Shown one piece after another: positions 2,010 through 30,807 of a stretch of 34,055 bases of DNA. The notes beneath the pieces are model-generated. The model was not told the origin of the DNA. It did no database searches and was given only the letters and a program-made list of their open reading frames with translations. The first letter of the stretch is position 1; every line of letters starts with the position of its first letter. The stretch covers positions 1-34,055 of the forward strand of contig JAKUOE010000005.1 of NCBI GenBank assembly GCA_022449845.1, in the 5' to 3' direction. Position numbers and translations under genes: made by a program. This DNA is from Candidatus Thalassarchaeum sp. (GTDB taxonomy: Archaea; Thermoplasmatota; Poseidoniia; Poseidoniales; Thalassarchaeaceae).

Positions 2010-3504
2010 CGGCGACCTCTCCTTGTGCCATGGGTAAACTGCCCAGTAAATTGCGCTTCTCCTCTGGTGTCAACAGTGCCATGCCTGCCAATGCAAGTTC
2101 ACGACGAATCGGTTCTAGGACCGTTTCTTCCAAATCTCCACGGTAAAACATGTTGAACGTGTCGAATGGAATCAGGCGCAAATCGGGACTGACGATGTGG
2201 ACACAGGTCTTCTTGACGCTGCGGAGATCGAAGGAATGGGCATCGATGAAATCCATGATGATGATGCGGAAGACATTGTCATACGAGAATTCGGTCGGCA
2301 TCTCGAGTTCTGGTAGACAGCACAGCAATTGGGCGAGAGAATGCCCGGCTGAATCGGGGCTGTGCGCAGTGGAAAGCAAATCCAGAATCTTGGCTTTCAA
2401 TTCCTGATCACGCTCAAACTGGATGGTCGAACGAGGTCCTGCGAGCAATGTCTCATCGTCGATATGGCGCGTGAGTGGAACGACGGTCTGACCCATGCGA
2501 AGCCCGTATGCCATGGCAATGGAATCTGGATGACAGGGAACTGGAAGCATGTCCTCAATCTCGAAGGAATCGGATTGTTCGCCAATCATTCGACGGACTT
2601 CGGAAAGTGTCAAGCGATCTTTGGCCATATCGTAATCTTCGTGTCTGCCCGCCTCCTGAATGGGTTGGAAAGTGACACCACGAACACATGTCCAAGACTG
2701 AGCATGCTCAATGATGGTACCAATCTCATGATCGTTGAGTCCCTTCTGTAGCGTCACGACCAGCGTTGTCGATACATTGTGGGCTTCTAGGTTCTCCAAT
2801 GCCCTCTGGCGTACGTCCCGAAGATCTGCACCTCGCAGCCGCATCAACGGTTCTCGCTCAAGACTGTCGAACTGAAGATAGAGTTCGAACCCAGGATTGT
2901 AATCGGCCAATCTAGCGGCGAATTCGGGTTCGTTGGCGATTCGGAGACCGTTGGTGTTGACCATCAGATGCTTGACAGGGCGTTCACGAACTGCATCGAG
3001 AATTTCAAAGAAATTCGGATGAAGGGTGGGCTCGCCACCCGAGATTTGGATGACGTCAGGTTCGAGTTCATTCTCGACGACGGCGTCGAGCATCTCGATG
3101 ATGTGCTCGAGTGTTCGGTAGTCTTCCTTGCGCTCTGGTCCGCTGTCCGCATAGCAAATTGGACACTTGAGGTTGCAATGATCTGTGACCTCGATGAGTG
3201 TCAGGCACGAGTGTTGCTCATGCGAGGGGCAGAGGCCACAATCGTAGGGGCAGCCGTACTTCATCGGCGTGTTCCAGCGTTCGGGCATCTCGCTCGGCTT
3301 GACGTAGACCTCACGGCAGCGACGATAGTAATCCGCATCGTCCGAGATGAGGACCTTTTCGCGCTTCGCACATGAATAGCAGAGTTTGTCCATGTAGACA
3401 TTGTTCTCCTGAATAATGATCTTGCCCTCTGCACGACGCAGACAGTCAGAGCACACGCTGGTGGCAGAATCGTAGAACAGGTAGTCCCGAATCTTGCCGC
3501 TCAT
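2002..3504 (-). CDS. Radical SAM protein of the MJ0619/Tes (GDGT-MAS)-like family
   Basis: N-terminal CSDC...CYSC metal site, auxiliary cluster motif GCPYDCGLCPSH, radical SAM CNLKCPIC, SGGEPTLHP, NTNG, YLQFD and VRGVTFQP; ATGA overlap with the lgt-like gene. Confidence 0.88.
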   Translation of the reverse strand: MSGKIRDYLFYDSATSVCSDCLRRAEGKIIIQENNVYMDKLCYSCAKREKVLISDDADYYRRCREVYVKPSEMPERWNTPMKYGCPYDCGLCPSHEQHSCLTLIEVTDHCNLKCPICYADSGPERKEDYRTLEHIIEMLDAVVENELEPDVIQISGGEPTLHPNFFEILDAVRERPVKHLMVNTNGLRIANEPEFAARLADYNPGFELYLQFDSLEREPLMRLRGADLRDVRQRALENLEAHNVSTTLVVTLQKGLNDHEIGTIIEHAQSWTCVRGVTFQPIQEAGRHEDYDMAKDRLTLSEVRRMIGEQSDSFEIEDMLPVPCHPDSIAMAYGLRMGQTVVPLTRHIDDETLLAGPRSTIQFERDQELKAKILDLLSTAHSPDSAGHSLAQLLCCLPELEMPTEFSYDNVFRIIIMDFIDAHSFDLRSVKKTCVHIVSPDLRLIPFDTFNMFYRGDLEETVLEPIRRELALAGMALLTPEEKRNLLGSLPMAQGEVADE

Positions 3505-4241
3505 GCATTCGTCTGAGGGACATCTTCTATTGAACGTTCACCCGGCTTGCCGTAGGTGAAGAACCACAGCAATCCGAGAACACAGGCCCATTGAATGGGA
3601 GTGAGACCCAGTAATTCGACCGGAGTCGTGTCCTTGATTGAATCCACGATGATGCGCCAGATGAGATACAGCACCATGAACATCTGGAAGCGTTGACCGA
3701 TGAGTGGAGTCTCCCATTTCTCAAGGAATGCCCAGATCGCCCCCAATGCTAGAATTCCATACAATTGAGTCGGATGTCGAGGGCCATCACCGAAATCAAC
3801 ACCCCATGGTAGATCTGTGTGGTATCCATAGGTTGCATCGGGTAGACCTGTCAAGAAGCAACCAATTCGACCGATGGCCATTGAGATGATGAGAGGGGTC
3901 ACGTAGACGTCCCCGGTTCGCACCGTGATTCCGAGGATCTTCTTGGTAATCTCAATCCCAATGGTGCCACCCAACAATCCGCCAACGATGGTCTTCCCAC
4001 CAACGAAAAGAATCGGGACATCAGAACCAATTTGATTTGAATGCTCGAGGAGAGCCAACAATCGAGCACCGAAGAGTGCACCCACCAAGGCAGCGAGAAT
4101 TAACCAGGCCCGATGTTCGCTGTCGACCGTGTCACCATGCAAGCGGCGCTCGCGCATCAGGAATGTGAAACCGGCCACATATCCCAGTAATTCGAAGACC
4201 AGATGGGCAGGAATACCCCAGAAGTCGACAGGGAAGTCCAC
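3501..4241 (-). CDS. Prolipoprotein diacylglyceryl transferase (Lgt)-family membrane protein
   Basis: Multi-TM protein with GGKTIVGGLLGG, IGRIGCFLTG, LPWGVDFGDG and HPTQLY. Start preferred at GTG 4241 (MDFPVDFWG), about 25 bp below a TATA-like box; the ORF track gives 4259. Confidence 0.85.
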   Translation of the reverse strand: MDFPVDFWGIPAHLVFELLGYVAGFTFLMRERRLHGDTVDSEHRAWLILAALVGALFGARLLALLEHSNQIGSDVPILFVGGKTIVGGLLGGTIGIEITKKILGITVRTGDVYVTPLIISMAIGRIGCFLTGLPDATYGYHTDLPWGVDFGDGPRHPTQLYGILALGAIWAFLEKWETPLIGQRFQMFMVLYLIWRIIVDSIKDTTPVELLGLTPIQWACVLGLLWFFTYGKPGERSIEDVPQTNA

Positions 4242-4263
4242 GCCTATCGGTCGGACCACCGGT

Positions 4264-13069: not shown

Positions 13070-13831
13070 TCATACGATTTCAATCAAACGAGAAAAACCG
13101 AAGGCGAAGGCGCGGCCATCCAACAATTCTCTCCAATAATGTGCTTCAAGGCGATAGCCATGACCATCATGTGACAGCACGATTTCATCACGATTCAAAA
13201 CAGAAAAAGACTGAGGGGCAATGTGCATTCCCAATCCAGATGCCTTCTGAACGGCCTCTTTGACCACCCATGTGCGGGTCGCTTCCTGAATCCCCACTCT
13301 TTGATCGATGTCCCACAATTGTTCAAGATACTGCAATTCTTCTCCAGATGTCATCATCGTCAAGAGATTTCGTGGACGAGGTGCATCCAAGGGTTCGGCA
13401 TCCAAACCAATCATTGAACCATTCAGAGATACTGCGGCAATCGAAATACCGTTGGAATGACCCAAAGTAATCTCGGACAACTTCGGACTCAGTGGACCAC
13501 CAGCACGCTCTCTGGCCTCCTGGTCTCTCCACATCAAAATGGGTTTTCGATGCTCATCCCGCACCACCCGTAGATCGAAAGGGTCGAAGCCGAGGTCCCG
13601 AAGAAGAGTGGCCAATGCATAACGAGCAGAGGCGTGTTCCATGGCTCGCTTAGCTGTGGCAAAAGTCGATGCTTCAAATGGGTCCACGAGCGGTAAATCT
13701 GACAATGTTGGTGCAGAATCCTCAGGATTGGGGTGGCCAACAGGCATCCAAACTGCGATGACGGTGTCGCCGCCACACGATTCAGGAAGGGGGAGAGGAG
13801 AAACAAGGCCTGATGGTCGCCATTTCACCAT
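13070..13831 (-). CDS. 4'-phosphopantetheinyl transferase (Sfp-like)
   Basis: HRKP, ITLGHS, IGLDAE (GxDxE) and WVVKEAVQKASGLG (WxxKEAxxK); GGTGA SD; directly downstream of the megasynthase. Confidence 0.9.
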   Translation of the reverse strand: MVKWRPSGLVSPLPLPESCGGDTVIAVWMPVGHPNPEDSAPTLSDLPLVDPFEASTFATAKRAMEHASARYALATLLRDLGFDPFDLRVVRDEHRKPILMWRDQEARERAGGPLSPKLSEITLGHSNGISIAAVSLNGSMIGLDAEPLDAPRPRNLLTMMTSGEELQYLEQLWDIDQRVGIQEATRTWVVKEAVQKASGLGMHIAPQSFSVLNRDEIVLSHDGHGYRLEAHYWRELLDGRAFAFGFSRLIEIV

Positions 13832-13868: not shown

Positions 13869-16800
13869 TTATTTCTCCTTTCTATTGAGGTTGAATCTCA
13901 ATTCCTCAGGGACCGGAGCCATACCTTTGAGACGGAGGCCTCGAAGTGACACCAGAGGTTTCTGATTTCGATCGAACACCATCGCATCATGAATCGTGAT
14001 TCCGTCGCTCTCCTGTCCACGACGGTAGCTTCGAACTCGCAAATCATCACGTAGAGAGGGAATCTTCAGAATCTCGCATTCCTCAATTCCAATTGGTAGG
14101 CTCGACAGATTGTCCACTTCCATTGCAACCAAACCTGCATTCTGGAAGCAAGCCTCAATGAGAAGTGGTAATGATTCCAGAAGCACAGGTTCTTCCTCAA
14201 ATAATTGTGAATTCGGGAGTTGACTGCGGAGCAGGGCAATTCCATCAGCACCCAAATTATCTCCGTCCGATACACCCTTGATGAGTGCACCATGGACCTG
14301 GAAGCGCGGTCCATGGAAGAAGCGGTCGTAAACGAAACTCGGTTGGAATGAGGCCTTGCCCTTTCCAGGTAGATCCGTGAAAGCCATCGGTGAATCTCTC
14401 TGAGCACCCTCCTTGAGTAAACGAACCATGGCCTGATGATGGACGAGAGGTTCCCCGAATATCTCTCCTTTCGAATTCACAAGATCACTTTCAAGATGGC
14501 ACTGGATGAACAGGGAATTGTGATCTTGTCCACTGAATTGAGCCCGGACACGAACACGGGCTTCCTCTTTCATCAATTTGATTGGAAGACCAAATTGAAC
14601 ATCGGAGAATCCCTCCAAATTGCACATCGGATAAAGCAACAGAGAACTCTGAGCAAACATTTCCATTGCCATCACACCAGGGTGGTAGGGGGTGCCTTCA
14701 ATCGAATGATCAATGAGGAAAGGGAATCTTTCAGAAGAGAGTGTGCACTCTGTGATAATCTCGGAATACGGTTCGTGTGTGATGATTCGATCGACGAAGG
14801 GGAAGCGCTCGGGTTCAGCGAGGGCTCCAGCGGTATCGGTCGGAAATTTCTGAGGCGGAGCGCGCTTGCAATTCTCATCATCTAGGATGCCTAAGGCACC
14901 TGCAACAACCACGCGACGTTTCCCTCCAGAAAGCATCTCTTGTACGAACAAATCGACTCCTGTTTCAACCGGAATCATCTCAATCCCGGCTTGCTCAAAC
15001 ACAGATTCGACCGAACCTCGAGTTGCCATGCCTACATCACTCCAACCCGACCACGCAATTGCAACCGCACGAGGGGCATCTTCGTGATGTGCAATGCGGC
15101 ACATTTCAGCATCGAGAATGTTGTTAGCAGCTGCATAATCGACTTGGCCGCCGTTTCCGAATCTGCCCGCGATTGAGGTGAAGGCACAGAGAACGCGTAA
15201 CTGGTCGATTTCATCGCCTAAAGCGTCCACTAAAGCCCTCCAACCATCAATTTTCACAGATATTACCGATGAGAATGTCTGCCATGATTTGTCTCCAACG
15301 AGTTTGGAATCTTCAAGGCCTGCACCGTGTACAAGTCCAGTGATTGTGCCGCATTCCTTCCCCACCGCTGTGATTACCTTGGAGACGGAGCGAGAATTCG
15401 TGACATCGCAGGCATCGTACAAAGCACGGTTGCCCGTCGCATGAATGTCCCGCATCGTTCGATGAATCTCCAGACTGCGCAGTTGTTTGTTCCACTCACG
15501 ATCCCATTCGACCATGGTGACTTTCCCCGAATCACTCTGAGAAATCATGTCCTCACGAAGTTCCATCTTACGTGCTTGCAAAGTGGATTCATCGTCTTCT
15601 AGCCATTCCTCGATAGAAGAATCAAGACGGGTGCGACCAAGAAGAATGAAGGTTGCACCGACGTTTTGACTCGCCTCTGCAACGCCAACGATACACCGTG
15701 CTGTGACACCTGAACCCCCTCCAGATATGACCCATACATCATCATTCTGAAGGGATTGAATTTCGTCGGTAAGATCTTCCTCATACAAACATAGAGTCCA
15801 GCGATTTCCGTCTCGTGACAAACCTACTTCTAGAGGTGAATTTCGGCCAAACGCCTCAGCCCATATCTGATGAGCGAGGGCGGTGGGGTCCGACAGGAGT
15901 TCGGGATCCACGTCGATGGCGCGGCAACGCAAATGTGGCTGTTCCTTGGCATATGACTTGACGATACCATGGGAACCGGCCGCGAGGGCGTTGAAACGGC
16001 TACCAGCATTGCCATGGCGACCATCCATTGCGCTGACAGACATGATTGTGCCGTCGGCAATTGAACTGAAGTGGGAATCCAGGGATTTCAGTAATCCAAA
16101 CAAACCATGTGTCGTCGATGTGAGGTGAGCCTGCTGTGTCTCACTTTCCCAACCCACACCTGCAAGACGGAGAGGGGCGAGGTGGAGAAGTGCGGCAACA
16201 TCACCAATTCTTGCGAGATGAGAACTGACTTCAGCCAATTGATCATGATTGCCGGGGTCGACACGAATGATGTCGACGGGACCGTCCTTCTCAATCTTGA
16301 TTTTGGAGACAATACTGGGGTCTAGCATGATTCGGACGGTGTCGATACCAGCAGCTTCCAGAATATGACACAATGTGTCTGCAACACCCCACGGGTCGTC
16401 GGTTACTGCGATAACCCTGCCATCGATATCAAGTGGAGTATTGGCTTCAGGAGGAATCGCCTCCGCCTCAACCTGCCACCGTCGGACGCCAAGAGATTCT
16501 GGTTGGATGGAAGGAGTTGGTGGATCAGGTTCAGAGATGATTGGTGGGGCTTCTATGGATTCAGGAGGGTCAGAATGTGATTCATCCTGACCCAAATATG
16601 CAATCATATGATTGAGAGTCGGGTGCTCACTCAAAACGAAAGATTCGTCCACCGGTAATCCGTAGAAATCACGGAGTTCAGCCATAATTTCGGCCTGCTT
16701 CACTGTGTCAATTCCGAGTTCACCCTCAAGATCCTGATCCAATTCGATGAAATCTTCAGGGTATCCAGTGTGTTTGACCACAACCTCGACCACTTTCGCA

Positions 16801-19800
16801 GCAACATCACCAGAGATTGGAGCCGTTGACAGTTGAACAACTTCCTCTTCCACAATGGGTTCAGGCTCGGGAAGAGGGATATCTTCTTGTTTTGAAGGAG
16901 AGGATTTAGGGGGAGAGAATGTGGACCAAGTAGTTCCCTGAACACCACCAATTATTTTCTCATCCGGATTGATATAAGCGACAAGTTGTCGGTTGAGAAT
17001 ACGCAGATCCACATCTCCATCACTCGCTTTACTCGCCCAGATGGCTACGTGTTCCCGATCCACGCGATCGAGGTTCGTAGCCATGCGCTTGACCATCGTG
17101 AACGCCATTTGCGAGCCAAATCCAGCGGCATGTCGAACGACGTACTCAACATCCACAGGACCTCCAGTTGACAGGCGGAGATGGCCCAATTCCGGATCGG
17201 GTTCCTTGAAATTCGCGATGGGGGGGAATTCACCCTGACACAGACCGCGAATCGAGACCGCATCTTCGATTCCAGTTCCCATCGGGTGACCTGTGAATCC
17301 CTTCGTGTTCGTGATGATAATCTCCGATGCGCTGTCACCAAAGGTTCTGCGAAGAGCCTGAATCTCCGCTGATGCCGAGCCCCCACGTGGTGGAGTGGCT
17401 GGTTCATGGGACATGAAGGAGGTTCGGGCGGCGATTGTATGACGATTCAGGCCCCAATTCTCTTCCATTTTCGCGATGAAGGTCTCCAACGAATCCGAGA
17501 CATGGTCAACATCTAGGCGGGTTGGGTGGAAGGCTGAATTGGCAAGATGTGTGCCGAGAAGTTCAGCATAGGGTGTAACCCCACGCTCCATTGCTAAACT
17601 GTGACGTTCGAGGACGAATGCGGCCGCACCCATCCCGAGGAGCATGCCATTTCGACGGGCATCGAAGGGGACACTGACTTCATCGACAACATTGCCCATT
17701 GCATGAGCGCCTGCGGCAGCGAAGCCAGCACCAATCCACGTCATCAATTCATCACTGGTTGAATCATCGGCACTGACGATGATGACTCGGTCGCAACGAC
17801 CTGTAGCCAACCAATCTTCTGCGATGGCGATTGCAGAGGGTGTCGAGGCGCAGGCATTGTTGACGGAAGCATTGGGTCCCCGTGCCCCAATCCATTGAGC
17901 AAATTGCGAATGACCCATGGTGAGAATCTGCAGTAGGAAGCGCCGGTCGAAATTGCCATCCTCATCCGCTCCATTGTTCTGCGCGTGCCGCATCGCTTGA
18001 TCGATTCCAGGGAAGCATGAGGCGAAGAGGACACCGGTACGGTCCCTCTCTGAGTCGGGCAAATGCCAATGTTGAATCAAACGCTTACCGGCTTTGTTAA
18101 TCTGTTCAACAGCCAGCAATGGTAAGCCTGCGTCCTTGAGTGCTTCAAGCCCAGCAGCCAGAGCGAGAGAGGTTGTGATATCCATCGCTTCGACAATCTT
18201 CGGATCCAAGCCATACTGTTCGGCCAAATCGAAGTGGCCCCGCCGCCCTGCTAGTTGAGGAATCAAGGTGAAATCATCACAAGGAACGAATTCGGCAGAA
18301 CCATCGGGGTGTTTGATAATTCGAACTAGATTTCGATCGAGGAGGCGTTGTTTGACGTCATCAGAAAGTTCGGAAATGAAATTCTCTCCACGGATTATCC
18401 GATCCAATGCATCGGGTGAGAATACCTCCTCCATTCCAGGCAATCCAAGGCTGAGTCCACTGAATACATAGGGGTCTCTGCGCCGAGCAGAAAGCGGATC
18501 TTCCGAGGTATGTATTCGCCGGTCGCTGAGGGTCTGAACTGAGATAGAATGGCCTTGTGGAACCTCAGCCAACCATTCGACGAGGCCTGGCAGTGTTGTT
18601 GCATTTGTACTGCCTTTGACTTGGTATTTGGACTGAATTTTCTGATGAATCTCTGATATCTGTACATCATTCAATCCGATTGTAAGCAAATCTGTCGAGC
18701 CGTGAATCATTCGTACAGGGAAGCCACTAACATCAGATACGATTCTTGCAATCGCAGACTCCTTGGACATCCGGTTGGCTTCATCCTGCTCCTCTTCAGT
18801 CATCACTGAAACCGGTGGAGGTGAGGAAGTGGGTGGTGCCGCTGGAATGACATGAGTCGGGGTAGATGTTCGGACACCGGCTCGGAAAGCCTCAGTGAGA
18901 ATGTCACTATTTGCATCCGGAATCTGCGGTATGCGGCCGGATAGCGCATGCAGTGCGAGAGCAGCATGGAAGGAGGCAATGCCGCCAACCTTGGGATGAT
19001 TGGTATTGGCGATAATCTTCGGTCGATCTTCAAATATCTGTTCGGCAAAGAGAGCTAGGGCTCGCTTGGGGCCAACTTCGATGAACATGCGAGCCCCGCC
19101 CTCGTACATCGTCTCCATCTGCTGTGTCCATTCGACGGCGGAAGCCATCTGTGGAGCGAGTTTGGCCAATATTGCTTGCTTGGCACTGCTGCCTGCTGGA
19201 GCGACATTCGGGTACCAACCGCCATCGAAATTCGAGGTGATTGGAATATTCGGCAATCGAATATCCAAACCCTCAAGGAAAGCGCGCAATGGTTCGTTCG
19301 CTGGGGCTACGATTCTGGAATGGAATGCATGACTGGTTTGTAGTTGTACACAGGAGACTCCGGCGTCATCGAAAGCCTTCATCACCCGCTTCATCGGTTC
19401 GGTCTCTCCGGCAATGACGGTCATTTTCGGACTGTTCTTGTTGGCGGCAATGACGTAACCATCTTCTGCTTCCAACACGGCTTCAATCTGTTCATAGGGA
19501 GCGGAGACTGAAGCCATGATTCCAGTGTCCTGGACCTCGACGTTGCCCATCTCAGTACCTCGTGCTGCGACGGCACGAAGAGCCGAGTCGAAATCGAGAA
19601 TGTCTGCAACCATCAGGGCCGCATACTCCCCCAGTGAATGGCCAGCAACCATGTCGGGTTCAAGTCCGTGCGCCTTGAGGAGACGATGGATGCCGAGGTC
19701 GGCCGTGAGCATCGCGGGTTGTGTGTACTCTGTTTGTTTGAGTTTGAATTCTGCATCTTTCTTCTCATCCTCAGTCAGATTCTCTCGAAGCACGAAGGAG

Positions 19801-19985
19801 GACAGAGTTTCACCTTCGAGAACTTCAATCATGGTCTGATCCGCTTCATCCCAAGTCTCTCCAATACAACGATACCGTTTGGAGAGGTCAAGGGTCATGC
19901 CGACATACTGGCTACCCTGCCCTGGATAGAGTTGAGCAACCTTGGCCTGTTCGGGCAATGGTGCAGTGTCGGTAATCATGACCAT
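13869..19985 (-). CDS. Type I FAS/PKS megasynthase, C-terminal part: AT-(degenerate ACP)-KS2-ACP-KR-DH
   Basis: AT: YPGQGSQ, GHSLGE, SHAFHS. KS2: NACAS, [68 protein letters not shown]. Same frame as 20160-21812. Confidence 0.92.
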   Translation of the reverse strand: [2038 protein letters not shown]

Positions 19986-20159: not shown

Positions 20160-21812
20160 TTAATCGAAATTCGAACCACTGAAAAGTTCAGCCCTTATGG
20201 AGGAAAGTTTGGCGGTTAGTGCTTCCAAATCGGGAGCGTTGACCAACAGGACGCCGCCTTCAATCTCCTTCAATTCAGCGTGTGAGAAAGTGGCTGTTGA
20301 TGAGAGTGTAGTTTGCGCAGAAGTCCCCGGGTTCAACCAAGCATTGCGACGGGTGTCGAACTCGTTGGCGAGAAGGGAATGGAAATCTCGATCGTAAGCT
20401 TCCAGTGCACAATGGAAATTCGTCCCTCCAAAACCGAAGGAAGAGACGCCAGCGCGGCGAGGGTGTCCGTTTGGAGCCAACCACGATTTGGGTTCAGTGG
20501 GAACATAGAATGGATTCGTTTCCCAATCGATGTTCTCGTTCGGTGTGGAAAATCCGGCACTTGGAGGAATCGTGCCTGTTTCAACTGCCCGAATCGCCTT
20601 GACAAGGCCGGCAATTCCGGCGGCGGCCTTGAGATGACCGATTTGACTCTTGATTGAACCCACGGCGACGTTGTCGCCCGGAGGTGTGTTGGTAAATGCG
20701 GCAGAGAGACTGGTCAACTCTGTTGCATCACCGACGACTGTGGAGGTCCCATGAGCTTCGATTAATTCGACTGTCGAAGAATCGTAACCAGCCTGCATGT
20801 ATGCCCGACTTACCGCTTGAATCTGGCCGCGGGTGCTCGGTGCAGTGATGCCTTTACCGCGACCATCACTACTCGCACCCACTCCACGGATCACCGCTTG
20901 AATGGAGTCGCCATCACGAATCGCATCGGAGAGTCGTTTCAATGCGAGGGCGCCCGACCCCTCACCCATGACAAAACCGTTCGCCTGAGAATCGAAGGGT
21001 GTTGAATGCGTGGCTGAAAGTGCGCCAATGGCGCTGAATTTTGCAAATGTAGCTGGATCCATGGTTCGATCGCTAGCGCCTGCAATCATCATGTCCACTT
21101 GGCGTGTCTGTAGTAGCCTGCAAGCGTCTAGAATGGCAGCAAAGGTGGATGCACAAGCAGCATCCGTGGAATAATTCGGACCTTGAAGGTCGAGGAGGTT
21201 GGCGACCCTACCAGCCACAACATTCGCGAGTTCGCCTGGCATTGTATCCTCAGTGACAAGGGGGAGGCCGTCGAGAATCGCGTCCTTGAACGCCGCCTTT
21301 CCTTCACTCGGCATCCCTCCCGCCTCGACAGCGTGACGTGCGAACTGATCAGCCCACACACGATGATTGGTCAGATTTCGATTCTCTCCTCCTAGAGCAT
21401 TTGCGAAGATTACACCGGTCCGCTCCCGAGGTAATTCACGGGCTCCTTCACCCATGTATCCTGCATCTTCCAAAGCGGCTGCACTGACGGTGACTGCCCA
21501 CTGTTGTGTTGGATCAATTTGAGGAAGAGAACCAGGGGGGATTCGCCAGCGGCGCCAATCAAATTCAAAATTTTCAACCCATCCACCAATCTTTGAGTAG
21601 GTCTTGTTCTCATCGACATTCTTTGGTCCCCCCTCAACCCAGAAATCAGAAGATACCCATCTGTTTTCGGGAACCTCCTTGAGTGAGACATGAGCAGACA
21701 AGATATTCGCCCAGAATGTTTGAAGATTCGGTGCATCGGGCAACAGAGTCCCGACACCGATTACGGCAATCGGTTCAAACGGATCCTGTGGATGTTCGTC
21801 AGGGATTGTCAA
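20160..21812 (-). CDS. Type I FAS/PKS megasynthase, N-terminal ketosynthase (KS1, PfaA-like); continues in frame past one TAA into 13869-19985
   Basis: EPIAVIG, IDPTQ, TDAACAS (Cys), EAHGTST, GSIKSQIGHLK and GVSSFGFGGTNFH. TTG start with a GAGGCGA SD; 58 open codons link the stop to the next ORF. Confidence 0.92.
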   Translation of the reverse strand: MTIPDEHPQDPFEPIAVIGVGTLLPDAPNLQTFWANILSAHVSLKEVPENRWVSSDFWVEGGPKNVDENKTYSKIGGWVENFEFDWRRWRIPPGSLPQIDPTQQWAVTVSAAALEDAGYMGEGARELPRERTGVIFANALGGENRNLTNHRVWADQFARHAVEAGGMPSEGKAAFKDAILDGLPLVTEDTMPGELANVVAGRVANLLDLQGPNYSTDAACASTFAAILDACRLLQTRQVDMMIAGASDRTMDPATFAKFSAIGALSATHSTPFDSQANGFVMGEGSGALALKRLSDAIRDGDSIQAVIRGVGASSDGRGKGITAPSTRGQIQAVSRAYMQAGYDSSTVELIEAHGTSTVVGDATELTSLSAAFTNTPPGDNVAVGSIKSQIGHLKAAAGIAGLVKAIRAVETGTIPPSAGFSTPNENIDWETNPFYVPTEPKSWLAPNGHPRRAGVSSFGFGGTNFHCALEAYDRDFHSLLANEFDTRRNAWLNPGTSAQTTLSSTATFSHAELKEIEGGVLLVNAPDLEALTAKLSSIRAELFSGSNFD

Positions 21813-23591: not shown

Positions 23592-24103
23592 CCCAGTAGA
23601 TTCTCATCGGAAAGTCGCTGCTTCCATCGACGAGCCGCCATTGAAACCAATTTTCCATGGCGGGCTTCAGTTGCAATACCTCGACCGTTGCGGAACAATA
23701 GCATCTGAATTTCATGGCGTGTGTCATTGATTCTAAGACAATCCAATTCTGCATCCATGACAGCTTCGGGATACAAATCTGGTACACCTTCGAGAGAAAT
23801 GGACGACTCAAAATCGAATGATGCGACCACAGGGCCGACCTCAAAGGACATCCCAGATTCATCCTCACCCATTCGCAAGAGAACCTCTTTTGCCGCAAGA
23901 TGAGCGAGGTCCTGTTTTCGACAACCGTGGACAATGATACGACCATCTTGATCGACCAAGAGGGTTGCACGTGGGGCGACCAGAGAGAGGGTGACATATC
24001 GGCCACTTCGCTTCCCTCCAATCTCATCGACAACCCGCTGTGGGTCGATGGGTGTAGCAGGGGTGAATCGGAACAATTGATTCTCAACGCGTGATTCCGT
24101 CAA
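23588..24103 (-). CDS. Highly divergent TATA-binding-protein (TBP)-fold protein
   Basis: 171 aa with two TBP-like half-repeats (RVEN...IDPQRV...PRATLLVDQDGRIIVHGCRK; VVASFDFESSISLE...MLLFRNGRGIATEAR); 4-bp overlaps with both neighbours. Confidence 0.65.
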   Translation of the reverse strand: MTESRVENQLFRFTPATPIDPQRVVDEIGGKRSGRYVTLSLVAPRATLLVDQDGRIIVHGCRKQDLAHLAAKEVLLRMGEDESGMSFEVGPVVASFDFESSISLEGVPDLYPEAVMDAELDCLRINDTRHEIQMLLFRNGRGIATEARHGKLVSMAARRWKQRLSDENLLG

Positions 24104-24918
24104 CTTCTCTCCTCCTCAACATGTTCTGGTAATGGGGAACTCTCCAGTGCGGAATGGATGTCGGGCATCCAAGCCTGCATGACTGGCACGAGGAGCACAG
24201 GTGTGCCCGTATCATCAACCTGTCCCCCACAAAGTGTTCCCAATGCTCCTCGAAGGCGTGATGCAAGACGCTGGTCTCTTCGTAAACGAAGTTCCTCATT
24301 GAGTACGGATTCCGAACGATACCACCATGCTGCTGCAAGTGCACTGGCCTGAGCGAGACCATGCGCCTTGGCATCATCTCTCTCACAATCGGGTGGCCCC
24401 GTTTGGTGCATGGCCTCACGTAGTGTACGCTTCCAAGCCCGTCCACTGAAGATAGAGCGAGTCAGGTTTCGTAAACGCACCATCTCATCTGCACAATCTT
24501 CGACCCATTCAGTCCATTCTTCATCCTCGGGTTCGACAAAGAATACTGGACGAGTACCTTTGCCCGAGGGGCTCTCAGCTGCCTGCAACAGGCGACGAGG
24601 TTCTGGATCAGGGAAACGACAGGTTTGGATTGACTCGATAGCGGATTGACCCATCATCATTCTCGCCAGTGTTCCACCACTTGCTGAGATAGAATCTCGA
24701 TTAATTCCAGGGGATGCCTTCTCTTGTTCTGCTTGGTCATTCCAAACTTCGGGCTCGTCATCCGGAAGAAGGAAGGCGAGTCCATCCCACTTTCCAACTG
24801 ATCGACGAAGAGAATCCGTCAACACAACGTTGGGCAAGAACGGCCACAGGCGAATGACTCCGCCACAGGGATCCTCCCATTCGACTGGCGACCAACTCAA
24901 GGGCGCCGAATCGGTCAT
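24100..24918 (-). CDS. Hypothetical protein
   Basis: 272-aa ORF with a GAGGTTG SD, tightly packed in the operon; no motif recognised. Confidence 0.8.
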   Translation of the reverse strand: MTDSAPLSWSPVEWEDPCGGVIRLWPFLPNVVLTDSLRRSVGKWDGLAFLLPDDEPEVWNDQAEQEKASPGINRDSISASGGTLARMMMGQSAIESIQTCRFPDPEPRRLLQAAESPSGKGTRPVFFVEPEDEEWTEWVEDCADEMVRLRNLTRSIFSGRAWKRTLREAMHQTGPPDCERDDAKAHGLAQASALAAAWWYRSESVLNEELRLRRDQRLASRLRGALGTLCGGQVDDTGTPVLLVPVMQAWMPDIHSALESSPLPEHVEEERS

Positions 24919-24927
24919 GGTTCAACC

Positions 24928-27900
24928 TCATTCTTGGCTGGCGAGCCACTCTTCGAGTTGCTCAACATTCCAGCCTTGATCGAAGTAGCCCTGAATCGTC
25001 GCCTCATCCCAGAACGGGAATTTCTCCTTGGCGATGTCCATCGGGCTCTTCGCAGCCGCAGGTGGGCCACGTGAAGCACCAGGTGGACCACGTCGGTCAC
25101 CGGCTCGGGTCGCGGGTGGACCCCGACTTCGCATCGGTTCAACGGCCTGGGCGGCTGGGAGGAAATCATCTTCCTCGATGTATTCGAGTTCATCGTCCTC
25201 AACGGTTCGGTTGAGAACGAGCAGTACGATGACGACAGCGACGATGAGGAGGGCAACGATGCCAGCAATACCAACGAGCAGCATGGTGTTCCCACCTTCA
25301 TCACTTTCAGCGAACTTCGCAACATTGAACGAATCGATAGAAGCGATTTCTTGATTATTCATGTCCAAAATAACGTAACTGACATTGATTGCCGCATTCG
25401 GGAATTGATCCATCGAAATTCGCCAACGTGTATCTTCTCCAGGTTGTACACTGAACGGACAAGTGTAAGTGACTGGGGAACTGGCTTCATCGCCAATCCA
25501 TGTCACGATTTGAATCTCCAGAACACCTTCCTTGTTGCCATCATTCTGGAAGTCAATCAACAGATCAAAGTCTGTCTGAGCCATGGGTTTGTCGACCGAC
25601 ATATCGACCCGACTGATGGTGAACTGTGCAGACTCATACGCCAACTCATAGGTACCTGCACCACTGTTGACTGAGGTTCCAAAGGAACCCGCGCCACCGA
25701 TGGTTTGTCCAGATGAATCATAACCAGTCAACCAGAATTTGACAATCACATTGTCCATGTCCTCAGGAATGGGTTGTGTTGAGGGCCATAGATCGAAACA
25801 AGTGGATGTCGCCCGAATCTGACCTTGTGACGATTCAAGGTACAGTGGAGTGCTTTCCCAACCTTCACCGTCTTCAAATGTGTTCAGATATTCAGTCCAG
25901 TTATACTCGAATCCACCGACTTCCTGTGTCTTATAGAACATCCAGTTCAATGAAACAGAATCCGTATCCATGCCTTGTAATTCGTCAATGAGAACCTCTG
26001 CATCGAGACAATTCATGACCGATGAAGAGATGCTCCCTTCTAACGTCTCACCCGTCACAGAATTCGAAAGATCCCACGACCCGAACACTGTGTCAGGCCT
26101 GTCACCATCGACCTTCACGATGAATGAACGCGATGGGGCAGGCGTATTGTCAACTGCACCATTGGGCAGACCGAGCAATTCCAATGTGTAACTGTACTCA
26201 TTGGTAGCATATGCTGCGGGCACCACCAATTGGAAAGAACCGTTCTCAAAGTCGTATTCGTTCACTTCGACCAGTGCGGGTGAATAACCACTGTCGGGCA
26301 AACCAGCTGGATAGAGAGGGGAGCGAGTGACCTGCAGACTGAGAGGAATCTCGGGGCTGACGAAGATCAAATCATTCATCCCTGCGCTGAACACATATCG
26401 GCCTTCAATGACCAAGATGTCGCCTTGATAGACGAAGCCACCAGATGCTGTGCCGACGCCGTCGGTCGGGAACCCGGAGGTGTCCTCAACAGAGAAAGTC
26501 GTTGTATCGAGTTCAATTCCACTCGAGTACGACCATCGCTGTGGATTTCGAGAGGCACTGATGTGGACCTCGTTGTTGTTCAAATCCTTGTCCTTCATTG
26601 CGATATCTGGTGTCTTCACACCACCGACGTAGCCAATGGGTATAGCCCACTCCATTCGAATTGGTACATCGAGGGTGAATTGCTGTTCGAAGGGTGAAAT
26701 CAAGATATTTCCTTCGCGCGTCAGCATGCGTGGTTTGATTCCTGTATTTTCATAATCATCTAGAATTTCAATCCAGGTGCTTTCAGTCCATGCCGTGTCA
26801 TTCTGTGGTGAATAGAACATCTGGATACAACCCTCTGGGTCGTAGGATGCTCCGGCTTCGTTGCAGATTTGTGGATTGAGGGTGATGGTAATCGTCTCAA
26901 CATCCTGCCAACCGTTGTCATCCTTTCCATCGACCAGCAAGTGATACACGTTGCCAGCGTAAAGGGACCGATTGTTTTCATTCAACATCGTGCCATGCGA
27001 ATCCGAGATTCGGAAGGCTTCGACAAGAGGTGTGCGGCTTTCCATCGCAATGTAGGTGACCGTGTCCGCGTTGATTCCAGGTCCACCGCCATCGATTTGA
27101 TTGCCACCGATGTCTGAACCGGAGACGAATAGACTGACCATCTGAGGTGGATCGATTCCACTGTTGGCATAATCACTGATACATTCACACGGATGATCAA
27201 TGAGGTAGTATGAGGTGTCCGCTTCAGTTTGACGTGCAAGGGTCATCTGCGAATACTCGTTCAGTTGTGCTTCTCGGTCCATCTCGCCCGTATCGGGCGC
27301 AACGTATGAGGGTACACCTGGACAGAGGCCGTCGAGTCCACAGTCATCCGATGCCTCGACCCAATAATTGAGGGTCAGAGTCTCGGGGGCGAGAGGTAGG
27401 TCCTGAGCAGCCACTCGGAATTTCTGGTTGTTACTCGCCTTCACCCAAGTGTCGTCAGTGAGTTCTCGCCAATCGCCCTGCACACTGTACACGGAGATAT
27501 TCATCAGATGAGGTGAGAAGGGGTCCAATGTGATTGTGAATCGAATCGCACAGTCACTGTCTGGATTGAAACTCTCAGGAGGACAGAGCAAATCGCCATC
27601 GGTGTAATTGTGAATCAACAATCGATACTGTTCCACACCAGCCTCTGATGCTGGAAGATTTGGTTGCCATGAATAATCGCCATCGATGGTCGCAGGTGTG
27701 GAATCCACAAACAACCAATCTTCAAACATGATTTCGGATTGGTTCCGCTTCTCCAACTTGACCGTGTAACTGTTCGGATTTGGAGCAACATCCAGATCTT
27801 CGTATCGAACATTGAAGTCCAGTGTAATCGTGTTGCTTGAGAAGGCATTGGTCAAATCAGTCTGTTCAACACCACCTTGGTTGAAGAGGGTGAAGTCGGT

Positions 27901-30807
27901 CATTCCTGCGTCATTCTCAACAGCATTGCCGTAATCGGGTTGGATTAGATTCCCCGCAGGCAGACCACTGACACCCGTGTTGGATATCGCGGATGCGTAC
28001 AGGCGCACGTTGGGAGTATCCTCCCATGTGGGGTTGACTCGGAAGCGCCAGTTGAGTTGCTTGGCACCATCATCTCCATCGGTCGCAAGAGATTGCATGT
28101 ACATGAAGTCTAGATTATCATGGACATCGCTCTCTTCCCAGAAGCTGCCGTTGGATGCATCCCATCGCAATTCCATGTTTCCGTTGGCCGTCTCAAACAG
28201 AAGGCTAGCCCCACCCAAGGTTTGACCTGTGGATGCAGCGACAGAGTGCGTGGTCACAATCTCAATGATGTCACCATTCGGGTACATTCCCGTGATTCCA
28301 CCGTCACCATAGGTTGAATCGTAACCACTCGTGGTCGAGATGGATAGAGAGGACAAGGAGATTGAACCACCCGAGCCACCGACGATTCGCATCGGGACAA
28401 TCACGTTTCCAGTGGCGCCTCCACTGCTTGCGAGTGCGACACCTTGATTCAGTTCACGTGCGATATTGTTGGAACCGCTGATTGCACGTTCCCAGTCGTA
28501 AATGATGTCGAGATCACGGAATGTGATACTCCCACCGCCCGAAGACGGTGCGTCGATACTCAAACGGAACAAACACCATTCATTGCCATATTGGTCAATC
28601 CAAGCCACCGGCACCAATGGGTTGTCGAGTAGGCTCTGGATGTTGTCCTGAATCGATGCTAGAGGGCTCTGGGGGTAGGGTATGAGTATAGGACCTTCGT
28701 CGATTGAACCCAGACTCACTTCCTCAGTACCACTGAGAAGAGACAAATCGAAGGCACCGATTCCATTATTCTCAAAATTCAATTCTGCATAATGTACAGT
28801 CGCGCCCTTGGGGAGGAGGAAGGGGGCACCTTGACCTTGATTATTGGTACCGAGACTGATTGTACGATTGGGTGAACCTTCATTCACACCATTGACAACC
28901 CCCGTTCGGAACATGTCCTGGCGACCGAAGCTACCGAACGCTGGATCGGTCATCCCCCATTCGATGTCGCTATCTGCCGCAACATCGAGTGTGATACCAC
29001 GCGAGTGGTGGGCAAAGCGGTATTCAACATGGAATGAGTAAACCTCACACATGGATGTGTAATTCGCCAAAACACCTACCATGAAACTCGGGGCTGAGAG
29101 TTCTGACCACGTATCGTTGGCCAGTTGGATGGAAGACTCATCAGCATTCAGACTCATTCCCATCAAGAAATTGGGACCGCCACAATTGTCCACGATGACG
29201 GGCTTCATGGCAACAACAGGCATTGAGAAATCAGTCCGAACCACAGGATCTGGGGATACGATAGAACCGTCGTGAATCGCCGATGAAATCATCACATACG
29301 AGCCTTCACTCATGGCTGATGTCCATTTATCACCACTGTACATCCCTCCATCCCAGAACACGCCATCCGTGTTGCGGAAATTGGTTCCAATGATTGTACC
29401 CAATTGGAATCCATACAATATCGGAGTCGACAGACGAGCCGAACCAGAACCGAAAGTGAACTTGAAATCAATCAGTGGGTAAGTATCTGCATTGATATCC
29501 CACAATTCGATGAGGCTCCCTTGGAGATTCGTCATCGCGTCACCATTTCGGTCGATGACAACATTCCCTGTTCCTGCCTCAAGCACATCAACACCGAAAT
29601 CAGCCGATGCGGATTTTTGGAGTTCAAGATTGAGGAGGCCGTATCCATCCGGGAACCCAACTTGACCAGAGGATTGAGGGGCAAAGGAACTCATGATGAC
29701 GTGGCCCTGAGCAGGGAGTGGGTCACCGACACGGACGCCATCGATATACCAACCAGCATTCATCATCTCCTCAGGGAATGCACCCTGTCGAGGATTAACT
29801 TCGTGGATGAAGAGCAATTTTACGAAGCGACCAGCATGTGTCGAAAGGTCGATGCGGATGTCAGACCATCCACTTGGAGAGTTGGAAGTGGTCGAACCAT
29901 TTCCTCCGAGGACATAAGCACCGGCGCCAGGGCCATTGGTCCCAAGGTAATCACATCGATTGGTGGGGACTTGGTTGACAGATGTACCCAATTGGTACAT
30001 GCCATCGCCTACAGAGACTCCGGTGGTGGCTCCGACATCGATGGGTGCGAAAACCGCATTCTGGAAATCGACATCGTTCGTAGAATTCTGTACGGCAACA
30101 TAGGCACAATCATCGTAGTAGTACGTTTGTGAACCCTCAGATGCCTCACGGTAGAACAGAGAATGGAAACTCTGGAAGGAAAGATCCGCCTTACCGGGGT
30201 GAACGAAGAAGGAGGCACTGGTGAGAACCATCTCAAATTGGCCATCGGGAAGACTTGCAGTGTAATCTGGATTTTCAAAATCCGTACCCCAACACCAATC
30301 ACCGACTCCACAACCCGTTGATAGAACGTTGTTGTCTTGGTGATCATGTGCCCAATTTGCAATCAGAGGCTGAATTCCTTGATCGGGGCCAGCAGACCAG
30401 CCCTCTGGATTCGCTTCAAAATCAGCGTTGAAACCTTGACTGGTCAGTTTCAGGTATTCTTGGTCTACAGTGAAATCGATTCCAGAAGAGAACTGAGTCA
30501 TCCCTCCATTGTAAAGTGGATTCCAAATCTCACCATTGGCGACCAGTGAACTGTCAATGACCTGAACGTCATCATGTTCAGCATAATCGGTGCCTACAAT
30601 GAAGCCGGCGGCATTGACCGTTTCACCGGCTGGCATACTGATGCCAGCCGTCAAGTCATCGCCCCAAGTTCCTTGATCACGGAGTTCAACATCCACTTCG
30701 GAATCGCCATTTGCAAATGTGCTAATCGTAGCCGCATGAACCAAGGTGGTAGAGAATACCATCAAGCAAATCATGGCCAACGATAGTGTGCGCGTTCGGG
30801 TTATCAT
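24928..30807 (-). CDS. Giant acidic cell-surface protein: signal peptide, beta-rich domains, C-terminal TM anchor and cytoplasmic tail
   Basis: 1959 aa; N-terminal signal peptide (MITRTRTLSLAMICLMVFSTTLVHA); Asp/Gly/Ser/Thr-rich body; CARDB/Ig-like segment (FQNDGNKEG); TM helix; acidic and Pro/Arg tail ending GYFDQGWNVEQLEEWL. Confidence 0.88.
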   Translation of the reverse strand: MITRTRTLSLAMICLMVFSTTLVHAATISTFANGDSEVDVELRDQGTWGDDLTAGISMPAGETVNAAGFIVGTDYAEHDDVQVIDSSLVANGEIWNPLYNGGMTQFSSGIDFTVDQEYLKLTSQGFNADFEANPEGWSAGPDQGIQPLIANWAHDHQDNNVLSTGCGVGDWCWGTDFENPDYTASLPDGQFEMVLTSASFFVHPGKADLSFQSFHSLFYREASEGSQTYYYDDCAYVAVQNSTNDVDFQNAVFAPIDVGATTGVSVGDGMYQLGTSVNQVPTNRCDYLGTNGPGAGAYVLGGNGSTTSNSPSGWSDIRIDLSTHAGRFVKLLFIHEVNPRQGAFPEEMMNAGWYIDGVRVGDPLPAQGHVIMSSFAPQSSGQVGFPDGYGLLNLELQKSASADFGVDVLEAGTGNVVIDRNGDAMTNLQGSLIELWDINADTYPLIDFKFTFGSGSARLSTPILYGFQLGTIIGTNFRNTDGVFWDGGMYSGDKWTSAMSEGSYVMISSAIHDGSIVSPDPVVRTDFSMPVVAMKPVIVDNCGGPNFLMGMSLNADESSIQLANDTWSELSAPSFMVGVLANYTSMCEVYSFHVEYRFAHHSRGITLDVAADSDIEWGMTDPAFGSFGRQDMFRTGVVNGVNEGSPNRTISLGTNNQGQGAPFLLPKGATVHYAELNFENNGIGAFDLSLLSGTEEVSLGSIDEGPILIPYPQSPLASIQDNIQSLLDNPLVPVAWIDQYGNEWCLFRLSIDAPSSGGGSITFRDLDIIYDWERAISGSNNIARELNQGVALASSGGATGNVIVPMRIVGGSGGSISLSSLSISTTSGYDSTYGDGGITGMYPNGDIIEIVTTHSVAASTGQTLGGASLLFETANGNMELRWDASNGSFWEESDVHDNLDFMYMQSLATDGDDGAKQLNWRFRVNPTWEDTPNVRLYASAISNTGVSGLPAGNLIQPDYGNAVENDAGMTDFTLFNQGGVEQTDLTNAFSSNTITLDFNVRYEDLDVAPNPNSYTVKLEKRNQSEIMFEDWLFVDSTPATIDGDYSWQPNLPASEAGVEQYRLLIHNYTDGDLLCPPESFNPDSDCAIRFTITLDPFSPHLMNISVYSVQGDWRELTDDTWVKASNNQKFRVAAQDLPLAPETLTLNYWVEASDDCGLDGLCPGVPSYVAPDTGEMDREAQLNEYSQMTLARQTEADTSYYLIDHPCECISDYANSGIDPPQMVSLFVSGSDIGGNQIDGGGPGINADTVTYIAMESRTPLVEAFRISDSHGTMLNENNRSLYAGNVYHLLVDGKDDNGWQDVETITITLNPQICNEAGASYDPEGCIQMFYSPQNDTAWTESTWIEILDDYENTGIKPRMLTREGNILISPFEQQFTLDVPIRMEWAIPIGYVGGVKTPDIAMKDKDLNNNEVHISASRNPQRWSYSSGIELDTTTFSVEDTSGFPTDGVGTASGGFVYQGDILVIEGRYVFSAGMNDLIFVSPEIPLSLQVTRSPLYPAGLPDSGYSPALVEVNEYDFENGSFQLVVPAAYATNEYSYTLELLGLPNGAVDNTPAPSRSFIVKVDGDRPDTVFGSWDLSNSVTGETLEGSISSSVMNCLDAEVLIDELQGMDTDSVSLNWMFYKTQEVGGFEYNWTEYLNTFEDGEGWESTPLYLESSQGQIRATSTCFDLWPSTQPIPEDMDNVIVKFWLTGYDSSGQTIGGAGSFGTSVNSGAGTYELAYESAQFTISRVDMSVDKPMAQTDFDLLIDFQNDGNKEGVLEIQIVTWIGDEASSPVTYTCPFSVQPGEDTRWRISMDQFPNAAINVSYVILDMNNQEIASIDSFNVAKFAESDEGGNTMLLVGIAGIVALLIVAVVIVLLVLNRTVEDDELEYIEEDDFLPAAQAVEPMRSRGPPATRAGDRRGPPGASRGPPAAAKSPMDIAKEKFPFWDEATIQGYFDQGWNVEQLEEWLASQE

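Follow-up and report, generated by a model that had tools for sequence, protein, structure and literature searches.

The locus and its domain layout

We analysed a 34,055-nucleotide stretch from an assembly of Candidatus Thalassarchaeum sp. (contig JAKUOE010000005.1), hereafter the window, to which all coordinates refer. The host is a Marine Group II (MGII) archaeon, and the nearest homologues carry the names Marine Group II, Poseidoniales or Thalassarchaeaceae. The window encodes a multidomain synthase related to PfaA, with a FabI-like enoyl reductase (ER) gene directly upstream and an Sfp-type 4'-phosphopantetheinyl transferase (PPTase) gene directly downstream, and every feature of this locus lies on the reverse (-) strand (Table 1). 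We focus on KS2, a second ketosynthase (KS) domain inside this synthase that appears competent from its residues, and on the large megasynthase family in which it recurs.

Table 1. Features of the synthase locus, listed from upstream to downstream
Feature	Position	Strand	Details
FabI-like enoyl reductase gene, 263 aa	21822..22613	-	directly upstream of synthase; Pfam adh_short_C2 E 4.8e-68
KS1, PfaA-type ketosynthase, 550 codons before stop	20163..21812	-	Cys220, His354, Lys388, His393, codons checked
KS-AT linker, 58 codons, no start codon	19986..20159	-	aligns with continuous ORFs of relatives L008, L010, L011
Malonyl-type acyltransferase (AT)	19029..19931	-	GHSLGE Ser117; HAFH at 219; Pfam Acyl_transf_1 E 3.1e-34, residues 19-319
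'x', degenerate carrier-like domain	18546..18803	-	Asp440 at attachment-residue position
KS2, second thiolase-fold ketosynthase	17085..18479	-	residues 503-967 of 2038-aa ORF
Single carrier (ACP), LGIDTVKQAE	16593..16796	-	Thr1094 (16704-16706) at phosphopantetheine-Ser position; Pfam PP-binding E 1.1e-11
Ketoreductase (KR)	15006..15743	-	GGGSG at 1422 to YAAAN at 1617; Pfam KR E 4.2e-23, residues 1509-1649
PKS-type dehydratase (DH)	13926..14768	-	H1760-x3-G-x4-P motif; Pfam PS-DH E 2.2e-05
Sfp-type PPTase gene	13070..13831	-	directly downstream; Pfam ACPS E 1.5e-10

On the 2038-residue open reading frame (ORF) at 13869-19985 (protein P0001), Pfam and NCBIfam models recover the order AT-x-KS2-ACP-KR-DH, where AT is an acyltransferase, x a degenerate carrier-like domain, ACP an acyl carrier protein, KR a ketoreductase and DH a dehydratase of the polyketide synthase (PKS) type. 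The AT spans residues 19-319, the KS-like region residues 591-797 by Pfam (N-terminal half) and 576-961 by the NCBIfam fabF model, the carrier residues 1064-1131, the KR approximately residues 1415-1660 and the DH residues 1740-2020. The AT also matches the TIGR00128 fabD model (E = 8.3e-58), and the DH scores 24.5 bits with PS-DH, above the cut-off, and 24.1 bits with PKS_DH_N, below that model's cut-off of 27. The preceding ORF (20160-21812, 550 residues) holds the first ketosynthase, KS1, with matches to Pfam ketoacyl-synt (E = 1.5e-54), Ketoacyl-synt_C (E = 2.5e-35) and KAsynt_C_assoc. Both ORFs match the PfaA model TIGR02813, the first at 363.6 bits (KS1, profile positions 8-465) and the second at 408.9 bits, against a cut-off of 1010, and KS2 itself falls outside the profile, PfaA having the order KS-AT-ACPn-KR with no internal KS. 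The top NCBIfam matches of the upstream reductase are all FabI models, at 227 bits and under their cut-offs of 299-477. The PPTase gene starts 37 bases past the synthase stop and lies downstream in related archaeal loci as well.

A single TAA at 20160-20162 divides KS1 from the remaining domains, with both ORFs in one frame. An earlier note on this DNA, made from the sequence alone, had presented KS-AT-x-KS-ACP-KR-DH as one protein; this is the natural order, although in the present assembly it is interrupted by the stop, which that note had read through. Taken at face value, the TAA would leave a gene that is broken here, either a pseudogene or a two-subunit enzyme whose domain order is uninformative about function in this host, and the lack of any ATG, GTG or TTG across the following 58 codons, which look like a KS-AT linker, fits such a break. 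Against it, metagenome contigs from four of four runs, drawn from four studies and at least 99% alike over the stretch, have C instead of A at 20162 (+), so that the codon reads GAA (Glu); no further stop occurs within the 2096 + 550 codons; and same-genus genomes carry the fused frame, at 2764-2776 open codons versus 2096 here. The corresponding codon is GAT or AAT in three relatives. The TAA, private to this assembly, is either an error or a rare allele. In its natural form the gene is an uninterrupted ORF of about 2647 codons, and it encodes a fused KS1-AT-x-KS2-ACP-KR-DH protein. A broken gene is a highly improbable account of the locus. Stop-codon recoding, also considered, is unnecessary since the population reads GAA.

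Catalytic residues of KS2

The earlier note had located KS2 at 17086..18480, which is the right place with the frame one base out (Table 1). The Cys-His-His motifs that it named are all present in the in-frame translation (NNACAST, SHEPATP and TGHPMG), together with Lys895 and Phe956, and we checked the codons of Cys712 (17850-17852), His860 (17406-17408), Lys895 (17301-17303), His900 (17286-17288) and Phe956 (17118-17120). Judged by profile and database searches, the likeness of KS2 to ketosynthases is far above chance. KS2 matches Pfam ketoacyl-synt in its N-terminal half only (E = 2.8e-14) and NCBIfam fabF over 388 of 465 residues (E = 1.3e-40), and a phmmer search of the PDB returned 80 distinct sequences at E<=0.01. 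The top match among them is the Thermus thermophilus ketoacyl-ACP synthase (KAS) II 1j3n (E = 6.4e-25), with which the Cys, the His and the K-x-x-x-G-H motif are in register in the HMMER alignment. A MAFFT alignment with E. coli FabF pairs C712, H860, K895, H900 and F956 of KS2 with C164, H304, K336, H341 and F401 (translated-gene numbering); these results are drawn only from the E. coli, KS1 and KS2 rows, some 'FabF' rows from bacterial loci in that alignment being wrong-frame translations.

As the earlier note had said, KS2 differs strongly from KS1 (31% BLASTP identity over 191 residues at E = 1e-10, and 22.9% over 410 aligned columns). Its description of KS2 as FabF-like is accurate in one sense: FabF and KAS II supply the best profile and PDB matches, and alignment extends to all four catalytic residues (Cys, His, Lys, His) and to the gating Phe. 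As a statement of membership it does not stand, with KS2 scoring 139.3 bits against the TIGR03150 cut-off of 493.75 and KS1 scoring higher, at 207 bits. Moreover, KS2 is only 27% identical to E. coli FabF, resides within a megasynthase and, in the tree described below, forms a long-stem clade apart from five true FabF proteins.

Conservation of the KS2 Cys and His residues among homologues, which had been proposed as a check on a second active site, proved complete. The catalytic Cys, His, Lys and His are unchanged throughout one set of sequences, 121 of 121 (the best 120 homologues plus the query, with 60-89% KS2 identity and mostly 2600-3000 residues long), and throughout 44 of 44 rows of a second alignment, A1, which extends over 43-89% identity and takes in proteins named from Bradymonadaceae, Polyangiaceae and an Asgard metagenome-assembled genome (MAG). 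The equivalent four residues of KS1 are invariant in all 39 full-length rows that contain KS1. KS2 thus retains, as far as sequence can tell, every catalytic residue of a KS that uses malonyl units and decarboxylates them, and we lean slightly towards regarding it as a genuine second ketosynthase that is catalytically competent. The KS2 family also has invariant features of its own, notably the loop S-H-E-x-x-T-P-x-R-G-G-S-A past the first His, which contains an insertion when compared with the A-H-G-T-S-T-P of FabF.

In the ESM Atlas, the feature clusters nearest to KS2 include some KS clusters to which diatom and Zoopagomycota proteins belong, at scores of 0.93-0.95. That KS2-like domains may occur in eukaryotes we take as a lead only.

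A widespread family related to Type R synthases

The domain order had been described in the earlier note as unusual. We found instead that the same layout is conserved in a very large family. A HMMER search with KS2 returned 543 clusters (50% identity) at E<=1e-30, of which the best 150 all fall below 1e-113 and in most cases place KS2 within a protein of 2000-4000 residues. When each species was represented by a single genome, at least 564 species genomes encoded a KS2 relative within such a megasynthase; they belong to Poseidoniales, Myxococcota, Acidobacteriota, Chloroflexota (including Roseiflexus MAGs), Actinomycetota and others. The domain-architecture check that had been suggested shows KS-AT-(ACP)-KS2-ACPn-KR-DH to be recurrent and mostly bacterial: the Pfam order in ten proteins of the family is [NMO-type ER]-KS-AT-(ACP)-KS2-ACPn-KR-DH-[PPTase], with carriers sometimes ahead of the AT and numbering 1-6 among relatives, and homologues of 2650-2950 residues hold the same domains as the synthase described here, their order having been checked in 11.

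Such a layout was catalogued earlier. In the passages that concern it, Shulse & Allen (2011, PLoS One, PMC3098273) describe a secondary lipid synthase of Type R, in which a PPTase gene follows KS-MAT-CLF-ACP(3-6)-KR, where MAT is a malonyl acyltransferase and CLF a chain-length factor; it was recorded in five genomes, with Koribacter, Solibacter, Elusimicrobium and Roseiflexus as hosts and the product unknown. This was the only paper returned by a full-text literature search for a KS-AT-KS or KS-MAT-CLF-type order. A literature search joining Poseidoniales, fatty acid and ketoacyl gave no match, and the passages checked in the literature on Marine Group II polyketide synthases do not concern this gene. 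By their titles and opening abstract lines, the papers retrieved for PfaA in archaea seemed unrelated.

In layout the synthase agrees with Type R as set out in those passages of PMC3098273. Both systems comprise one pfaA-like gene with a KS, a malonyl AT, a second KS-like domain, one or more carriers and a KR, followed by a PPTase gene; the domain order (with TAA read as GAA) and the downstream PPTase gene both agree. Acidobacteriota and Chloroflexota, phyla of Type R hosts, are also among those with KS2 relatives, and an acetyl-CoA carboxylase gene adjoins an acidobacterial locus of our set, as the paper reports for Koribacter. The internal domain of Type R may be homologous to KS2: Roseiflexus sp. 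MAG proteins are 77% identical to a Chloroflexia KS2, which shares a KS2 family clade with the KS2 described here, the sequences compared being from MAGs and not from the strains that the paper names. In contrast, the same passages label the internal domain CLF, whereas KS2 retains Cys, His, His and Lys; they give 3-6 carriers, versus one intact and one degenerate carrier here; and the present host is an archaeon with an adjacent FabI reductase, the word 'archaea' being absent from the paper's main text. Because it has one carrier and a degenerate one rather than 3-6, this synthase is a variant related to Type R and not a strict member.

Phylogeny and the chain-length factor alternative

Shulse & Allen's name for the internal domain, given in the Type R passages of PMC3098273, brings forward an alternative in which KS2 is a CLF-like partner that forms a heterodimer with KS1 and sets chain length and/or only decarboxylates malonyl-ACP for priming, without itself elongating chains. 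We built a quick IQ-TREE phylogeny of 69 KS domains, with family KS1 and KS2 rows and all KS matches from four bacterial genomes (midpoint root, Shimodaira-Hasegawa-like approximate likelihood ratio test, SH-aLRT, only). In this tree, KS2 forms its own clade on a long stem (SH-aLRT 100). A second clade (SH-aLRT 99) unites KS1, PfaA-like KS, two PfaC-like KS and their two CLF-like partners, and a third group contains the five bacterial proteins that score above the FabF cut-off (582-640 bits).

Pairing of a KS with a KS-like partner is familiar from polyunsaturated fatty acid (PUFA) synthases and type II PKSs, and here KS1 and KS2 are always co-inherited, with the archaeal rows forming one clade in both subtrees; these facts suit a CLF-like role. 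Like the CLFs of type II PKSs (KS-beta) and of PfaC, KS2 is a second thiolase-fold domain beside a KS. Chain-length factors, however, lack the catalytic Cys, which is kept in every KS2 examined. KS2 also groups apart from the CLF-like halves of two PfaC-like genes (L115 and L107, the only two such rows), which sit with the type I/Pfa clade and not with KS2, and KS1 and KS2 do not follow each other directly, since the AT and sometimes carriers stand between them. A PfaC-type CLF identity for KS2 is rejected on the KS tree with its two CLF-like rows, and the label 'CLF' for this type of domain would be a misnomer on sequence grounds, because KS2 keeps its Cys and forms a clade apart from both PfaC-type CLF-like domains and true FabF. 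We consider the broader CLF-like or priming role unlikely.

In a tree of 53 KS2 rows, a branch with support 100 sets all MGII rows, together with one unnamed protein, apart from the rest. These unrooted trees fit a single acquisition in MGII. Comparison of archaeal and bacterial versions gives identities of 47-54% for KS2 and 27-31% for the ACP-KR-DH part in most bacterial loci, so that KS2 is, by these alignments, one of the best-conserved parts between the two. The Asgard-MAG protein P0126 stands away from MGII, its KS2 being placed among bacteria; the gene was either transferred separately or binned in error. P0126 unites ER-KS-AT-KS2-ACP-KR-DH-PPTase in one chain of 3592 residues.

Carrier domains

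The ACP is the only PP-binding match in the host genome. Its Thr1094 aligns with the phosphopantetheine Ser of solved ACPs, and the carrier motif is present in 246 of 263 fetched proteins (at least 1200 residues long). As the attachment dipeptide, D-T is the usual form, counted 495 times across 203 proteins, whereas D-S was counted 88 times across 44, and all 25 bacterial loci with the motif have D-T. A literature search found no paper on a phosphopantetheinylated threonine. The S36T variant of E. coli ACP is reportedly not modified by AcpS.

Domain 'x' matches PP-binding below the cut-off (E = 0.015, 15.9 bits), and its attachment position is variable across 78 homologues. Since an intact LG(I/V)DTVK(Q/S)A(E/D) carrier occupies the same place in some bacterial homologues (P0128, P0130, P0140 and P0142), these features together mark 'x', at the level of sequence comparison, as a relic carrier.

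Reductases and host genome context

The FabI gene adjoins the synthase in 49 of 55 archaeal loci, the other six being truncated on the upstream side, and in none of 25 bacterial loci. The conserved order in Poseidoniales is orf272-TBP-like-TatD-FabI-synthase-PPTase. Outside MGII, an N-terminal NMO-type ER is fused to the synthase in four of nine proteins scanned, and in three of three bacterial loci examined (L080, L087 and L067) a gene for an acyl-CoA-dehydrogenase-like protein of 544-558 residues lies immediately upstream, preceded in L080 by genes for electron transfer flavoprotein (ETF) alpha/beta and an Fe-S/CCG protein. Downstream of the synthase, L080 and L067 have multidomain acetyl-CoA carboxylase genes and L087 a carboxyltransferase gene. 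These loci may combine enoyl reduction of the acyl-CoA-dehydrogenase/ETF type with a malonyl-CoA supply of their own. The synthase is never without a reductase, whose kind differs by lineage, which argues that enoyl reduction is needed and that the product would be a largely saturated acyl chain.

The host assembly comprises 1.65 Mb in 233 contigs and is 81% complete, which bounds every absence reported for this genome. Within it, the synthase, the FabI-like reductase and the PPTase are the only ACP-dependent acyl-chain system that we found; other thiolase-fold matches are limited to two short ones, and neither FabA/FabZ nor PlsY was found. The genome also encodes three carboxyltransferases, which could supply malonyl-CoA, one GpsA-like protein and two PlsC-like proteins.

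Among 201 sampled Poseidoniales genomes, KS2 occurs in 126, including 95 of 99 in one family and 28 of 99 in the host's own. Synthase and PPTase were not found in six small-genome genera of the host's family (0 of 68 genomes, some more than 90% complete); the gaps of the PPTase match these six of KS2, and with the query used the PPTase was also not found in one further, KS2-bearing genus. Coupling of the synthase to a PlsC-like acyltransferase, which we considered, is rejected: PlsC-like genes occur in 195 of 201 Poseidoniales genomes, including 63 of the 68 that are without the synthase.

Possible transfer or head-to-head roles of KS2

The gene content of the locus bears on two further roles for KS2. 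In the first, a finished chain held on the KS2 Cys would be passed to an acceptor, or a starter acyl group would be accepted there. Such transfer or release would fill a gap, given that neither a thioesterase nor a second AT was found in the archaeal gene set, and the family-specific loop beside the first His could be read in the same way. However, the His, His and Lys of malonyl decarboxylation are invariant, a set for which a pure transferase would have no need, and no known acceptor-binding domain is attached; we therefore find a transfer role quite improbable.

In the second, proposed in the earlier note, KS2 would join two acyl chains head-to-head, as in Pks13 or OleA, to give very long or branched lipids. 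The presence of two condensing centres within one protein, and of carriers both before and after KS2 in some bacterial homologues, would suit such a reaction, and Pks13, the mycolic acid condensase, is likewise a type I KS-AT protein that handles long acyl chains. However, a second AT, an acyl-AMP ligase, a dedicated carboxylase and a thioesterase are all missing from the archaeal locus and gene set, and the window holds one intact, functional-looking carrier and one degenerate one. Unlike Pks13, the synthase is also without an N-terminal carrier and carboxyacyl supply, and its scores with the Pks13 model NF040607 (72.5 bits for the AT-x-KS2-ACP-KR-DH ORF and 272.5 bits for the KS1 ORF) are far under the cut-off of 2100. 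Finally, the ER, KR and DH suit ordinary reductive cycles. The head-to-head proposal is thus unsupported, and we judge it extremely unlikely.

Neighbouring genes

Elsewhere in the window lie genes for fibrillarin, a Nop56/58-type protein, PCNA and a TBP-like protein. We considered orf272 (24100-24918) as a lipid gene and rejected it, as it has no family match and nothing suggestive. A radical SAM protein of 500 residues (2002-3504, -) scores best with TrsS (302 bits) and with tetraether lipid synthase, Tes (264 bits), under the respective cut-offs of 490 and 450; it may bear on the debated tetraether lipids of MGII. The gene at 3501-4259 (-) encodes, in an archaeon, an Lgt-like prolipoprotein diacylglyceryl transferase (Pfam LGT E = 2.6e-23, NCBIfam below cut-off). 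In bacteria, the donor used by Lgt is a diacylglycerol lipid. Finally, an ORF of 1959 residues at 24928-30807 (-), with a hydrophobic N-terminus, a C-terminal hydrophobic stretch, a Pro/Arg/Gly-rich tail and no Pfam match, probably encodes a giant surface protein.

Discussion

We describe an archaeal member of a megasynthase family in which KS1-AT-(ACP)-KS2-ACPn-KR-DH is accompanied by an ER and a PPTase, either fused or adjacent, and for which KS2 would be the defining domain of a PfaA-like iterative enzyme. Building on the observed domain identities, residue conservation, breadth of the family and gene linkage, and on the finding of no other ACP system in the genome, we infer that the synthase, the adjacent FabI-like reductase and the PPTase could form a self-contained machine in the MGII host, similar to a fatty acid synthase (FAS). 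The AT would charge the carrier with malonyl units, KS1 and KS2 would each carry out decarboxylative Claisen condensations, and the KR, DH and FabI would reduce every beta-keto intermediate, yielding a largely saturated fatty acyl chain. Elongation rounds would be split between KS1 and KS2 according to chain length or the structure beside the thioester, as in PUFA synthases. On balance, we give a little more weight than not to such a synthase, FAS-like and iterative, in which KS1 and KS2 are both active and divide the elongation rounds, and we rank the CLF-like or priming, transfer and head-to-head roles of KS2 all below it.

The earlier note had suggested that two active condensing centres, sharing one AT and one carrier, might divide initiation from elongation. 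Both centres do look competent from their invariant residues, and a shared AT and carrier with split elongation has a precedent in PUFA synthases; a division into initiation and elongation between KS1 and KS2 is possible. Ogata et al. (2025, PMC11962503) report that the rounds of PUFA synthases are shared out between their two KS domains by chain length and near-thioester structure. This is the only tested precedent for a pair of KS domains working within one iterative system. The resemblance to PfaA/PfaC extends further, since the PfaA model covers KS1 and the ACP-KR-DH part and both systems are iterative, with a malonyl AT, two Cys-bearing KS per system, a need for a PPTase and a separate or fused ER. 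In PUFA synthases, however, the second KS is on another subunit and is followed by CLF and FabA-type DH domains, whereas KS2 stands past the AT in the same protein and belongs to another KS clade, and no FabA-type DH was found here.

Several observations weigh against two active KS domains in a fatty acid synthase. The loop past the first His of KS2 differs from that of FabF, and the chemistry or substrate may accordingly differ as well. The attachment site of the carrier, whose modification is predicted, is Thr and not Ser. In addition, no thioesterase or other release enzyme was identified, and the Pfam scan showed no thioesterase domain. Finally, the synthase is dispensable and not tied to the PlsC-like acyltransferase, because the small-genome genera described above retain the latter in nearly every genome (63 of 68) and the former in none. 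In this respect, the synthase may provide de novo fatty acids where scavenging is insufficient, or it may make a specialised lipid.

A wider proposal, which we put forward tentatively and hold to be doubtful in its entirety, is that the family represents an uncharacterised, widespread type I FAS-like machine in which both ketosynthases work, the reductase can be exchanged (FabI, NMO-type or acyl-CoA-dehydrogenase/ETF-type) and the prosthetic group of the carriers sits on Thr instead of Ser, and that MGII acquired it once and would have in it their only de novo fatty-acyl route. The family, present in at least 564 species genomes, has never been characterised, and its internal KS has been mislabelled, to judge from its residues, as a CLF of the inactive type. 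Thr at the carrier attachment site is likewise without a precedent in our literature search.

These questions matter for the membranes of MGII, which are among the most abundant planktonic archaea. According to the passages on lipid genes in PMC6461757 and PMC6962369, MGII are without the archaeal glycerol-1-phosphate backbone gene and possess a glycerol-3-phosphate dehydrogenase and PlsC-like acyltransferases. The locus is a complete, expressible candidate, with KS, AT, carrier, KR, DH, FabI and PPTase, which makes fatty-acid synthesis in MGII directly testable. The synthase may let MGII archaea make fatty acids themselves and, if this is true, it would give a concrete enzymatic basis for the bacterial-type or mixed membranes that have been proposed for MGII.

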